Source: a virus
Taxonomy: Duplodnaviria > Heunggongvirae > Uroviricota > Caudoviricetes
Virus record (IMG/VR): IMGVR_UViG_3300037455_001096
DNA: 64,000 bases
Reading direction: 5' to 3' (one strand)
Of this stretch, positions 34,591 through 52,567 are shown piece after piece; positions within the stretch are counted from its first letter, which is position 1, and each line of letters starts with the position of its first letter. A program made the translations under genes and the position numbers. The notes below the pieces were generated by a model that had not been told where the DNA came from, made no database searches, and was given only the letters and a program-made list of their open reading frames with translations.

Positions 34591-35385
34591 CTACATATAG
34601 TATTCGATAATCACGCCGTTGTCCAATGTGACGTAGTTGTCGTTCAGTTCCTTTGCGTCAAGTTGGCTGAAGTCGTAACCAAGATTGACGAGTGTTTCGT
34701 AAGACAGTTCGTTGGTTTCTTCGGCTACTTCGAAGTATTCGTCCATTTCCTCGTTTTCGCCGTTGTAGTTGTTTTTCAGATAGGTAACAAGCCAAGACTG
34801 TCCGCTGAACTCGAATATCATATTCTCGATTAGTTCGTTTATGTCTTTCCAAGATGTGCATATTCCGTGGTCGAAATACTCGTTGTTTGACGGATAATCG
34901 TCAACAATTTCTTTCGCTTCTTTTAACGAAATGCCACAGTTTCTCGATATTATACCGAGTTCGTCTTTTTTCACTTTTTCGATGAGGCGGCTGTTTTTGT
35001 CTGACAGAAGCGTTATCACAATAGAATCCAACATTTCCTGCGGGCAACTGTTCAATTTGAATGCGTTGAACTGCTCTTCGCTCAACACGGTTTCGTAGTC
35101 ACTGTATTCCGCGTTTTTGTCGAGTCTGTTTGTGAAATTCGCGCCCTGCAACATTATCTGACCGTCAATGTCTGTCAGCAAGTTCCCGTTTTCTATTTTC
35201 ACGTATGAAACAGCGTCTCTGTCTTCCTGCGAGATGTTTTTGAACGCGAACACGCAGCCTATGTAGTTGGTGTAATATGACTTTGGCTTCGGTTTTTCAT
35301 CGGTATACTTTTTCAACTGTTCTTTTGTAATCGGATGTATGTCGAGTTTCTCGTTTATGAATTCTTGTGAATTGAGTATCTTCAT
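34591..35385 (-). CDS. leader-family protein with a non-LRR C-terminal domain (264 aa)
   Basis: N-terminus MKILNSQEFINEKLDIHPITKEQL, with an unrelated C-terminus. Confidence 0.65.
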   Translation of the reverse strand: MKILNSQEFINEKLDIHPITKEQLKKYTDEKPKPKSYYTNYIGCVFAFKNISQEDRDAVSYVKIENGNLLTDIDGQIMLQGANFTNRLDKNAEYSDYETVLSEEQFNAFKLNSCPQEMLDSIVITLLSDKNSRLIEKVKKDELGIISRNCGISLKEAKEIVDDYPSNNEYFDHGICTSWKDINELIENMIFEFSGQSWLVTYLKNNYNGENEEMDEYFEVAEETNELSYETLVNLGYDFSQLDAKELNDNYVTLDNGVIIEYYM

Positions 35386-35394
35386 AATTATGTA

Positions 35395-36147
35395 TTATTT
35401 TTCAATTTTCCCTTTAATCCAACTTGGTTTTTGTTTTGGTAATTTAAGGTTTGGGTTGTTTTTACAACGAAAATCCTTTCCGACTTCCTGCGGTGCGCCT
35501 TCAAGTGATGTCAGTTGGTTATCGCTGCAATCAAAATTCGCACCTACTTCCTGCGGTGCGCCTTCAAGTGAAGTCAGATTATTACTATTGCAAATAAAAC
35601 TCCCATCCACTTTATTCGGTGCGCCTTCAAGAGAGGTCAAATTATTGTCACTACAATAAAAACCTCCACTGACTTCCTGCGGTGAACCTTCAAGTGATGT
35701 CAGTTGGTTTTCGCTGCAATCAAAAAGACCGCCGACTTCCTGCGGTGCGCCTTTAAGCGAGGTTAGTTGGTTGTATTTACACCAAAAATCATCGCCAACT
35801 TCCTGCGGTGCGCCTTCAAGCGATGTCAGTTGGTTGTAACCGCAATCAAAATAACCACCGACCTTATGCGGTGCGCCTTCAAGACTTGTTAATCCAACAT
35901 CCGAACAATCAAAATCACCTTTGATTATTCCAAATTTGATTTTTAATTTACCATCTTTATCGACTACACGGGAATCAATGGTAATGTCGCGGTCACAGTC
36001 GTATAGTTTTGATAATTTGTTCCACACAAGTACGTATTGGTCGATGAATGACTTAACCATCGGCTCATCAAACCTTTTGTCGTTTTTGCCAATAGGTTTG
36101 ATGTTCAGTTTCTCGTTGACATATTCTTGTGTATTGAGTATTCTCAT
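35395..36147 (-). CDS. leader-tagged LRR-like repeat protein (250 aa)
   Basis: MRILNTQEYVNEKLNIKPIGK leader, the YDCDRDI...GKLKIKFGIIKGDFDC linker, then ~22-aa repeats N(Q)LTSLEGAPQEVGxxFxCxx. Confidence 0.75.
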   Translation of the reverse strand: MRILNTQEYVNEKLNIKPIGKNDKRFDEPMVKSFIDQYVLVWNKLSKLYDCDRDITIDSRVVDKDGKLKIKFGIIKGDFDCSDVGLTSLEGAPHKVGGYFDCGYNQLTSLEGAPQEVGDDFWCKYNQLTSLKGAPQEVGGLFDCSENQLTSLEGSPQEVSGGFYCSDNNLTSLEGAPNKVDGSFICNSNNLTSLEGAPQEVGANFDCSDNQLTSLEGAPQEVGKDFRCKNNPNLKLPKQKPSWIKGKIEK

Positions 36148-36148
36148 A

Positions 36149-50782: not shown

Positions 50783-51244
50783 CTATTTGTGTTTTTTTAT
50801 GTATGCGCTGTAATGCATCACACTGTATATTCGTATTATGTTTCCGCTGTCGTTTATTCCGAAAAGAACGTGTTTTCTTAACAGATTCGAGACAGTTTTT
50901 TCATTGAAATACAATTTCGCATAGTCTTTGAGTTTGGCGGAGAAAATTTCAAATTCCGAAGTACATTCTGTTTTCATATCATCCAATACCTTTTTCACTT
51001 GGTCGAATGAATGGTATTTGCCTATGAGTTGGTTTTTATATTCCTCGTGGTTGTCATACTGCGGCAATGGATTCTCGCTTATGAGAACGTCAGTCGAATA
51101 CACATCGTTCTTATCGCCGCATTTTCCTTTATACAAATAGAAATTTGGGATGCCGTCAGCCTCCTTTTGCAGCCTATCACTTGAAAGAGGCTGTATGTTA
51201 AGTTTTTCGGAAACAAATTGCTCCGATGTCATTATCTTTGTCAT
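50783..51244 (-). CDS. leader-family protein (153 aa)
   Basis: MTKIMTSEQFVSEKLNIQPLSSDRLQKEADGIPNFYLYKG. The body resembles module 1 of the 799-aa gene. Confidence 0.6.
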   Translation of the reverse strand: MTKIMTSEQFVSEKLNIQPLSSDRLQKEADGIPNFYLYKGKCGDKNDVYSTDVLISENPLPQYDNHEEYKNQLIGKYHSFDQVKKVLDDMKTECTSEFEIFSAKLKDYAKLYFNEKTVSNLLRKHVLFGINDSGNIIRIYSVMHYSAYIKKHK

Positions 51245-51717
51245 AGTTCACCGTTAATGTATGCTTCGTAAAGTTCTTTGCTGTATATTCGGAATATTTG
51301 GTCTTGTTTGTTTATGCAGAAAAGGACGTGGTTGTTATGAAAATATGACGGTATGCTTTTGGCTTTGTAGTATTCAAACGCATAGTCTTTCAGATTAACG
51401 GAGAATATGGCGGTTTGCTTAAATGTGAATCCGCCGTTATTAATAATTGAATTATCCAATATATCTTTAACTTTGTCAAAGGAATGGTATAACCCGACAA
51501 ACTTTTTCTTGAACACGTGGTTGTTGTCATATTGCGGCAGCGGTTTGTCGCTTATCACAACATCGTATTCGAAAACGCCGTTGTCCTCACCGCATCGCCC
51601 TTTATACAAATAGAAGTTTGGGATGCTGTCAGCCTCCTTTTGCAGCCTATCACTTGAAAGCGGCTGTATATTCAGTTTCTCGGAAATGTATTCCTTTGAC
51701 TTCAGTATCTTTGTCAT
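51241..51717 (-). CDS. leader-family protein (158 aa); close paralog of 50783..51244
   Basis: MTKILKSKEYISEKLNIQPLSSDRLQKEADSIPNFYLYKG. The ATGA overlap with the upstream gene suggests coupling. Confidence 0.6.
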   Translation of the reverse strand: MTKILKSKEYISEKLNIQPLSSDRLQKEADSIPNFYLYKGRCGEDNGVFEYDVVISDKPLPQYDNNHVFKKKFVGLYHSFDKVKDILDNSIINNGGFTFKQTAIFSVNLKDYAFEYYKAKSIPSYFHNNHVLFCINKQDQIFRIYSKELYEAYINGEL

Positions 51718-51730
51718 TTGTGTATTTGTT

Positions 51731-52567
51731 TTATGCTAATTTTGCGTGTTTAGGTTTGGCTGCGAAATCTTTTATGTTATCACATCCTTTCAAGTAAAGC
51801 GTACCGCAAAAGTCTTGCGGCAACCCGTCAAGGGAAGTTATGCCTATGCAGTTTTCAAAATCAATGTAATTCTGTGCTTTTGGACAATATTCCATTGAGG
51901 TCAGACTTTCACAGTCAGAGCATATAAAGAACGAGCCTGCGTTTTTTGGTGCGCCTTTTAGTGAAGTCAGACTTTTGCAGTTGTTGCAGGTGAATCCCGT
52001 TTCCAATTCCTGCGGTGCGCCTTCAAGCGATACCAAACTGTCGCAGTAGGAACAGTTGAATTTTTGTTTCACTTTTATCGGGGCATATTTGAGTGTTTTG
52101 AGACTGATGCAGGAATTGCAGTTAAATTCGTACTTTATTTCCTGCGGTGCGCCTTTCAATGTTTTCAGATTGTCGCAGTTGTAGCATTTGAAATCACCGT
52201 CAACCTTTTGCGGTGCGCCTTCAAGCGTTTCCAATTTAACGGCGTATGAACAGTCAAAATCATCGCCTACTTCTATCGGTGAACCTTGCAAGGACGTTAG
52301 GTTTTTGCAATCAACAAAGGTGAATGAACCATTTACTGTACCGAATCTGATTGGAAGACTGCCGTTTATGAGGTCGAAATAGTAGATACGCACATCACTT
52401 TCGCAGTCATATAAACCGCTTTCCTTATTGAGTACAAGTTTGTTCCTTGTGATTAACTTATCGGTTTGCCTTTTCACATTGTCCAAAGTCTTGTTGATAC
52501 GCTCCATTGAGGTAGGCGTTATCTTGAGTTTTTCCGAAACAAATTCGTCATACCCTTTTATTTTCAT
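51731..52567 (-). CDS. leader-tagged Cys-rich LRR-like repeat protein (278 aa)
   Basis: FVSEKLKITPTSMERI leader, the YDCESDV...LPIRFGTVNGSFTF linker, and repeats CxNLxSLxGAPxxVxxxFxC. Confidence 0.7.
   Translation of the reverse strand: MKIKGYDEFVSEKLKITPTSMERINKTLDNVKRQTDKLITRNKLVLNKESGLYDCESDVRIYYFDLINGSLPIRFGTVNGSFTFVDCKNLTSLQGSPIEVGDDFDCSYAVKLETLEGAPQKVDGDFKCYNCDNLKTLKGAPQEIKYEFNCNSCISLKTLKYAPIKVKQKFNCSYCDSLVSLEGAPQELETGFTCNNCKSLTSLKGAPKNAGSFFICSDCESLTSMEYCPKAQNYIDFENCIGITSLDGLPQDFCGTLYLKGCDNIKDFAAKPKHAKLA

Follow-up and report, generated by a model that had tools for sequence, protein, structure and literature searches.

In a 64,000-nucleotide stretch of DNA from the Caudoviricetes virus record IMGVR_UViG_3300037455_001096 (hereafter the window), 16 genes share an N-terminal leader, M(K/T)IL..(E/D)(Y/F)(I/V).EKL.I.P, attached to variable cargo that consists in half of the family of leucine-rich repeats (LRRs). 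The genes lie in two co-directional minus-strand runs, 34591-39385 (array 1) and 46118-52567 (array 2), with three more dispersed outside them. We favor, with a probability of about 0.55, the reading that these arrays are an expanded, hyperplastic repertoire of internal phage proteins that use an extended form of the T4-type capsid targeting sequence (CTS). The family itself, the N-terminal position of its leader, selection on the leader as a peptide, its likeness to the T4 CTS, the T4-type relatives, a T4-like late-promoter motif, the LRR fold and variation in copy number are seen in the sequences and models.

A family of genes with a common N-terminal leader

A previous reading of the window, made from the letters of the DNA without database searches (the sequence-only reading), had claimed that at least 16 genes share the leader, and each of the 16 was found where that reading had placed it. 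A six-frame scan of the window for the core motif [EQ][KR]L[NDKR][ILV][KQHST]P returned 17 matches, every one inside a gene of the family (three of them in one 799-amino acid protein encoded at 48223-50622), compared with a mean of 0.06 and a maximum of 1 match in triplet-shuffled versions of the window. The observation of the sequence-only reading is thus confirmed. Two members carry the leader in altered form: 62823-63584 has its first half only (MSKILKLDEFTKINE), joined to a Fib_succ_major domain, and in 15663-16469 the two halves are split apart by ~30 residues. The window leaders have neither a hydrophobic core nor a lipobox, and a secretion or lipoprotein signal was rejected on this ground. 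We conclude that the genes are a true paralogous family in which a portable N-terminal leader is placed on variable cargo.

The leader-encoding DNA recurs at each gene start, as the sequence-only reading had pointed out when it proposed that these starts are ready-made recombination sites. However, across the 17 copies in the family, the DNA is only 56% identical, with 70% identity at codon position 2 and 39% at position 3; two to four codons are used about equally for each of the invariant Glu, Leu and Pro; and the longest exact run between two leaders has a mean of 8 nt and a maximum of 20 nt. Because identity at position 3 is so much lower than at position 2, the codons are mixed and the exact runs are short, the leader is under selection at the peptide level, which disfavors a nucleic-acid function and leaves the use of leader DNA as a recombination site weakly supported. 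Occasional exchange at the leader motif may still take place, since in one relative, represented by a 413-kb contig, the N-terminal part of the first gene of array 1 is fused directly to EKLNIKP and LRRs, with the junction exactly at EKLNIKP.

Resemblance of the leader to the T4 capsid targeting sequence

The T4 internal proteins IpII and IpIII start MKTYQEFIAE, and IpI starts MKTFKEFTSTTTPVSTITE. The first 10 residues of IpIII suffice for packaging; within the T4 CTS, residues 4 and 7 have a role in targeting, and processing is governed by residues 8 and 10 (PMC9026906). The gp21 prohead protease of T4 cleaves after L/I-x-E, and cleavage is lost when this Glu is changed to Asp. Residues 1-12 of the leader resemble MKTYQEFIAE: P4 is aromatic, P3 aliphatic and P1 Glu, fitting L/I-x-E, although the likeness spans only ~10 residues and is suggestive, short of statistical proof. 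With the bar marking the candidate cleavage point, window leaders read MKILNSQEFINE|KL, MNVLSIDDFIAE|KL and MKILNTEEYISE|KL, and a DDFIAE variant is also present.

Searched exhaustively against 1.84 billion representative proteins (E ≤ 1e-3), the leader profile matched 218 protein clusters. Of the 150 best matches, 143 start at residues 1-4, and one protein (P0153), which starts MKTYEEYIEEKLNIKP (MKTYEEYIEE), is a direct hybrid of the leader and the T4 CTS. Among 136 N-terminal leader copies, P4 is Tyr or Phe in 104 and P3 is Ile, Val, Leu or Met in 115, P1 having been fixed as Glu, Asp or Gln by the search pattern used to find the sites. A further 39 copies are internal, spaced ~150-170 amino acids apart in multi-module proteins; they keep P3 (aliphatic in 36/39), P2 (Asn, Ser, Thr or Asp), the P1 Glu and the prime side KLNIxPxSKxRL; neither the aromatic P4 nor the MKIL portion is retained. 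Such a division would be expected of a leader whose N-terminal part serves for targeting and whose (I/V/L)-x-E| is cut.

Orthologues of the acidic-cargo gene at 34591-35385 occur in two forms, with or without a 27-residue KLxIxP segment (about half lack the whole segment), and because both keep MKILKSEEFINE, the module boundary falls exactly after Glu-12. In both AlphaFold2 models that we obtained, the leader forms a short helix followed by a low-confidence coil, with a predicted local distance difference test score (pLDDT) of 50-68, detached from the well-folded domain. Further, the arrays of relatives mix leader genes with genes that start MKTYSDFIGE, MEIYKFEQFIAE (FEQFIAE type) or MKIHNFEDFIAE, and orthologues of the gene at 52576-54774, which heads the array 2 unit, have the CTS-like start M.Y(I/V)K(S/T)YD.F(I/V)NE.

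The motif TATAAATA is the T4 late-promoter consensus. There are 18 copies of it in the window against 1.34 expected (~13-fold excess), 15 of which, as read from coordinates, lie 17-62 nt upstream of the start of an open reading frame (ORF) on the same strand. It stands in front of both array units, of three dispersed copies and of tail-fiber genes (site examples are 7289, 17931, 54836 and 54840). This distribution suggests T4-like late transcription, in a phage with genes that lack obvious Shine-Dalgarno sequences. Counts of sigma-70-like promoters and of terminators in the window were at chance level, apart from a few strong hairpins.

In the mechanism that we propose, the leader genes would be transcribed late, from T4-style TATAAATA promoters, and residues ~1-12 of their products, M(K/R/E)IL...(Y/F)(I/V)xE, would dock each protein on the scaffolding core of the prohead. 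A gp21-type prohead protease would then cut after the Glu of (I/V/L)-x-E, removing the tag, and the same protease would split multi-module fusions, such as those of 799 and 475 amino acids, at internal (V/I/L)-(N/S/T)-E|KLNIxP sites. The mature proteins, with KLNIKPxSKxRL as their new start, would remain beside the DNA within the head and pass into the host at infection, where the cargo (LRR solenoids whose concave faces vary, Cys-rich LRRs, an acidic protein, Fib_succ_major and DUF285 domains, an enzyme fusion and many unrecognized domains) would most likely bind or modify host proteins early, and the arrays themselves would gain, lose and resize genes quickly. We infer the packaging, cleavage, injection and targets of the leader proteins from their genes. 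The sequence-only reading had spoken of a hypervariable cargo or effector repertoire; the variable gene content bears this out and the cargo reading agrees with it, and the CTS and the prohead protease-like site make the proposal sharper.

LRR solenoids and other cargo

A repeat hidden Markov model found LRR-like repeats in eight of the 16 genes, which also carry the linker and the GKLxIKFG segment, namely those starting at 15663, 35395, 36149, 36985, 37590, 38495, 48223 (two blocks) and 51731. The remaining eight have unrelated C-terminal domains. Thus, the architecture described by the sequence-only reading is real, but its attribution to most members is overstated, because LRR-bearing proteins make up half of the family. 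That reading had also noted repeats of ~22 residues in variable number, some of them Cys-rich, and this holds: the period is 21 amino acids (63 nt) in array 1 and 22-23 amino acids (66 nt), with Cys-rich units, in array 2, with ~4-10 units per protein.

The AlphaFold2 model of the product of 35395-36147 has a pLDDT of 92; after a flexible stretch of residues 1-27, the chain folds into an LRR solenoid at residues 28-250 (solenoid pLDDT >94). Its best matches in the PDB were IpaH3, SspH1, IpaH1.4 and YopM (template modeling score 0.50-0.57, probability 1.0, E ~2e-3). Pfam LRR_4 exceeded its cut-off in one window protein only, and no window protein matched the BspA/LRR_5, DUF285 or FNIP models at E up to 1. 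The likeness to the latter three families that the sequence-only reading had considered was therefore not borne out, the predicted fold being closest to the short LRRs of IpaH, SspH and YopM. We conclude that the repeats belong to the short bacterial LRR class and are predicted to form a solenoid. In the 21-residue unit, Leu-3, Leu-6, Gly-8, Pro-10, Val-13, Phe-17 and Cys-19 are almost invariant, and entropy peaks at positions 2, 16, 18, 20 and 21. By analogy with the LxVxxNxL strand of YopM, the most variable positions, in or beside F-x-C-x-x-N, map to a putative concave binding face.

The bacterial LRR proteins IpaH, SspH1/2 and YopM are the best structural match, with a 20-22-residue repeat that reads LxVxxNxL in place of the FxCxxNxL seen here, and they are delivered proteins that bind host targets, which for the phage LRRs is what we propose. 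They differ from the phage proteins in that the latter have no membership of those families at the sequence level, no E3 ligase domain, another delivery route and a Cys ladder in place of the Val/Leu position, and the E value of the match is only ~2e-3.

LRRs are one kind of leader cargo among several. They occur in only ~13 of the 150 best leader matches, and among 109 non-LRR leader proteins, Pfam assigned DUF285 to 16 and Fib_succ_major to 10, with ~80 having no match. DUF285 thus occurs in other phages as an alternative cargo behind the leader, and a MafB19-like deaminase and pentapeptide repeats gave one weak Pfam match each. No recognizable fold and no fold relative was detected for the acidic cargo of 34591-35385. 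For the LRR domain as such, there are >7,300 homologues, on contigs as long as 413 kb, and many of these homologues have other CTS-like starts, e.g. MKNLKTYRQLFES.

The gene at 52576-54774 encodes a CapA-like PGA_cap metallophosphatase and a MATCAP/QEGLA-like peptidase, with a leader-like NDYIDEKLKL between the two domains. This fusion may be packaged as an enzyme with poly-glutamate or protein C-termini as its substrate.

Finally, we asked whether the repeats bear signs of a diversity-generating retroelement. No reverse transcriptase was found in the ~50 window ORFs scanned (some small ORFs lay outside the scan), and no near-identical template/variable repeat pair was seen, the repeat copies being 60-84% identical. 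A diversity-generating retroelement was rejected for these two reasons, in agreement with the sequence-only reading, which had seen no reverse transcriptase.

Relatives of the phage and variability of the locus

No match to the 19-kb region was found among deposited phages by megablast. The gp32-type single-stranded DNA-binding protein of the window has its best matches in a 462-kb uncultured phage and in Lak megaphages. The window also encodes collagen-like tail fibers, a dUTPase, GMP reductase-like and PurA-like proteins, a GH108 lysin and a flotillin. The closest relative is the 413-kb contig mentioned above, IMGVR_UViG_3300031994_000001 (also Ga0310691_10000010), whose flanking proteins are 80-85% identical, and which shares identical leader proteins and gene neighborhoods with a 248-kb contig, Ga0247608_10000043. 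These two relatives encode Portal_T4, Phage_T4_gp13, Gp44_lid and a UvsW-like helicase, and leader genes of the relatives sit directly after the portal gene and before gp13. The T4-type portal and neck genes suggest that the group is a very distant jumbo branch of the T4 superfamily. The host is probably a member of the Bacteroidota. In the T4-like relative itself (L004), a GmrSD_N (DUF262) protein and an EcoRI-type methylase are encoded at 5962-7491, between tail tube-like and portal genes.

Comparison of syntenic loci, which the sequence-only reading had suggested as a check, showed that gene number is hypervariable and that the number of repeat units varies too. The array 2 slot, from PGA_cap to flotillin, holds seven leader genes in the window, three in the 413-kb relative and one in two relatives of 76% identity. 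The array 1 slot, from the first gene (MDSRLEKIR...) to the acidic cargo, holds five LRR genes in the window, two LRR genes with a small leader gene and a TnpB insertion in the 413-kb relative, and no LRR gene in L029. The anchors of these two slots are 76-85% identical among the relatives compared. A 192-kb contig carries 13 consecutive leader and LRR paralogues with 3-11 units each, and the syntenic arrays of L001 and L023 have genes of unequal length and a copy number that differs by one. In more distant relatives, whose PurA-like protein is 52-60% identical (L008-L019), there were no leader genes near the PurA-like anchor.

Two further observations concern these loci. First, TnpB/IS605 OrfB genes lie in or beside the leader arrays of relatives (L007 13912-15189; L021 1034-2671 and 16434-17660; L025 11338-12564; L031 11690-12946), with none in the window, and may contribute to the plasticity of the leader loci. 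Second, the array 2 slot of the 413-kb relative contains, at 13829-14683 (L006/L028), a DUF285-repeat protein that starts MKIYKINEYLSVNAQ, i.e. a different repeat scaffold.

Weighing the internal-protein reading against its rivals

The T-even loci for internal proteins with a common CTS are well known (PMC3012670, PMC9026906, PMC12373910, PMC2839356), and three T4 internal proteins each disarm one GmrSD restriction nuclease (PMC12373910). The arrays resemble these loci (IpI, IpII, IpIII and Alt) in having a short tag at the N-terminus whose key residues (MK.., aromatic, I/V, x, E) are shared, in the unrelated cargo behind the tag, in clustering at loci that differ between close relatives, and in the company of T4-type portal and neck genes and T4-like late-promoter motifs. 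They differ in that the leader adds the conserved 12-residue KLNIKPxSKxRL; in number, with at least 16 genes per 64 kb and as many as 13 paralogues in tandem where T4 has three; in that the cargo consists mostly of 20-35-kDa repeat solenoids and not of 8-20-kDa basic or acidic proteins; and in the multi-module fusions with internal sites. Further, the lineage is too distant from T4 for BLAST to find the portal. The phiKZ-like giants (phiKZ, 201phi2-1 and SPN3US) also have paralogous head-internal families and a gp21-related protease that cuts after Glu, but the phiKZ motif is S/A-x-E, used at multiple sites in long propeptides, the inner-body proteins have no such leader or LRR cargo, and the relatives of the window phage carry T4-type portal and neck genes, not chimallivirus genes.

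Several points weigh against the proposed packaging of these proteins. The (I/V/L)-x-E motif is low in information, and the strongly conserved prime side, KLNIKPxSKxRL, lacks a T4 counterpart. A tblastn search of deposited phages with the leader and linker consensus (E up to 1) gave no match, and no cultured phage was thereby found to carry the leader. Searches with T4 gp19, gp20, gp67, gp68, gp21, gp22 and gp23 (tblastn, E up to 1) found nothing in the window or in the fetched loci of relatives, nor was a prohead protease found in the contexts of five further leader genes, so that genes for the protease, the scaffold and the major capsid protein are missing from the DNA fetched for this lineage and the relationship to T4 consists of matches at the Pfam level only. 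Surface proteins and adhesins are the usual setting of LRR, DUF285 and Fib_succ_major domains, array 2 adjoins tail-fiber genes, and cargo of 799 and 732 amino acids is large for passage through the tail.

Some of these points are those expected if the leader were instead a docking peptide that attaches interchangeable binding modules (LRR, DUF285 or Fib_succ_major) to the exterior of the virion, at the baseplate, fibers or capsid, the family being a variable set for host recognition or adhesion. This is the main rival, which we consider unlikely. Most of the cargo that can be recognized is adhesin-like, the repeats vary mainly on the putative binding face, array 2 and the tail-fiber cluster are divergent, 62823-63584 comes after tail-fiber genes, and the leader genes have late-promoter motifs, all of which would suit surface display. 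There is also a precedent in the proposed DUF7941 "fiber cloud" of Chimalliviridae (Goslar gp22, gp23 and gp86 among others), where a conserved N-terminal module carries variable C-terminal binding domains that include LRRs and carbohydrate-binding domains. However, DUF7941 is a folded, oligomerizing baseplate module, whereas the leader is a CTS-like peptide of ~25 residues that is predicted to be flexible and to provide no folded adaptor. Residues 1-12 of the leader can be matched one by one to the T4 CTS, true CTS-like genes are present in the arrays as well, and the internal copies retain the protease-like site while losing the N-terminal part. Some of the cargo also looks intracellular (the protein of net charge -24, the enzyme fusion and the single weak deaminase and pentapeptide matches).

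Less likely still, and in our judgment quite improbable, is that the leader sends late proteins elsewhere in the infected cell (to a membrane or flotillin site, to export or to turnover) and that they are never packaged. The flotillin/SPFH gene between the arrays would fit such a role, as would KLNIKPxSKxRL, which has no T4 role and could be a separate signal, and packaging is something that we infer for these proteins. Against this, the leader has no hydrophobic or lipobox signal, the leader genes of relatives are embedded among portal and neck genes, and the likeness to the T4 CTS would be left unexplained. That the conservation lies in the nucleic acid (a recombination cassette, or a translation-initiation or regulatory element), with the peptide incidental, is very improbable: array 1 gene starts are 71-83% identical over 65 nt and one relative has its fusion junction at the leader motif, but the codon analysis and the short exact runs described above already largely refute it, and the peptide is kept in 218 clusters with unrelated downstream sequence.

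To our knowledge, nearly all examples of injected internal proteins come from T4 and phages closely related to it, and in the library that we searched, no literature was found in which LRR proteins are connected with the ejection or internal proteins of phages. New here are a leader in two parts, LRRs as cargo, fusions that resemble polyproteins and a family of this size. If the internal-protein reading is correct, uncultured jumbo phages use an enlarged form of the T4 loading mechanism to deliver dozens of modular binders, with LRR solenoids as the main scaffold; the leader profile would then be a sequence rule that predicts the packaged and injected proteome of uncultured phages, the cargo would be a large pool of candidate anti-defense proteins, and the leader would provide a natural tag with which foreign proteins could be loaded into large capsids. 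Variation in gene number and repeat number is also seen here as a route to diversity without a diversity-generating retroelement. More tentatively, gut- and rumen-type jumbo T4-related phages could possess a large "injectome," with dozens of LRR and other binders per genome that are loaded by the extended CTS and released by protease from polyprotein-like precursors. In this speculative scheme, KLNIKPxSKxRL might be a second signal (e.g. for ordered tail ejection or DNA association), and the LRR paralogues might be inhibitors of host defense, a phage counterpart of the bacterial LRR effectors.

Organization of the arrays and neighboring genes

The junctions in both arrays are mostly tight (1-22 nt) and operon-like, as had been noted from the sequence; genes overlap by ATGA twice and by TAATG once (at 37590), and a single gap measures 160 nt. 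The gaps are 9, 1, 2, 2 and 2 nt in array 1 and 22, 11, -4 (ATGA), 160, -4 (ATGA) and 13 nt in array 2.

The array 1 transcription unit, on the minus strand, begins with a TATAAATA motif at 39819-39826, 18 nt upstream of the first gene (39382-39801; 139 amino acids, starting MDSRLEKIRKFEGNVMDFDSYIKDRIEQ). There follow four genes for the leader, the linker and LRRs, at 38495-39385 (296 amino acids, ~9 units), 37590-38492 (300 amino acids, ~9 units; the Pfam LRR_4 match, 28.3 bits against a cut-off of 27), 36985-37590 (201 amino acids, ~4 units; TAATG overlap with the upstream gene, and an identical protein on a Logan contig) and 36149-36982 (277 amino acids, ~9 units). The modeled protein is encoded next, at 35395-36147 (250 amino acids; leader, linker, seven LRR units and a C-terminal cap). 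The conserved last gene, 34591-35385, joins the leader to a strongly acidic 252-amino acid cargo (isoelectric point 4.4, net charge -24). Between array 1 and a bidirectional terminator-like hairpin that ends the unit (34131-34158) lies a small late gene on the minus strand (34179-34550), which has its own TATAAATA at 34574-34581 and encodes a small protein whose start, MENVKTYFDLKNE, is CTS-like and whose C-terminus is hydrophobic and rich in Gly.

The array 2 unit, also on the minus strand, has its TATAAATA at 54836-54843, upstream of its first gene, the PGA_cap (CapA-like) and MATCAP/QEGLA-like fusion at 52576-54774 (732 amino acids, CTS-like start MQMEHLQTYENFIEKL). Downstream are a leader with a Cys-rich LRR variant (51731-52567; 278 amino acids, 17 Cys) and two paralogues that join the leader to an "IPNFYLYKG" domain (51241-51717, 158 amino acids; 50783-51244, 153 amino acids, with an ATGA overlap). 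The 799-amino acid fusion at 48223-50622 has three modules: the leader with an IPNFYVYKG domain, HISEKLNIKP with Cys-rich LRRs, and TANEKLNIQP with Cys-rich LRRs. The unit continues with a leader and an unrecognized 218-amino acid cargo (47537-48226), a leader (MTKILKIDDFSKVNERLDIKP) and an unrecognized 339-amino acid cargo that is conserved in the 413-kb relative (46461-47525), and a leader (MNVLSIDDFIAEKLNISP) with a 94-amino acid cargo (46118-46438), which has its own TATAAATA at 46458-46465.

The dispersed copies are the split leader with LRRs at 15663-16469 (minus strand, TATAAATA at 16492-16499), the Fib_succ_major gene with the first leader half at 62823-63584 (plus strand), and a leader with a 133-amino acid cargo at 42294-42731 (plus strand). 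The last of these lies in a cassette made up of a strong terminator hairpin (42239-42262), TATAAATA (42268-42275), the gene and a second strong hairpin (42753-42783), an arrangement (42239-42783) reminiscent of the mobile cassettes of promoter and stem-loop known from T4-type genomes.

Between the arrays, the plus-strand gene at 44495-46030 encodes a flotillin/SPFH protein (Band_7 and Flot) that is near-identical in relatives and serves as a conserved anchor beside array 2. A divergent adenylosuccinate synthase-like protein, far below the PurA and PurZ cut-offs, is encoded at 32097-33233 (plus strand). Near this PurA-like gene are genes for a GMP reductase-like protein (28603-29640), a guanylate kinase (12314-12784), a deoxyribosyltransferase-like protein with a metallophosphatase (8373-9374) and a dUTPase (2385-3101), and together these genes may form a purine or DNA-base modification module.

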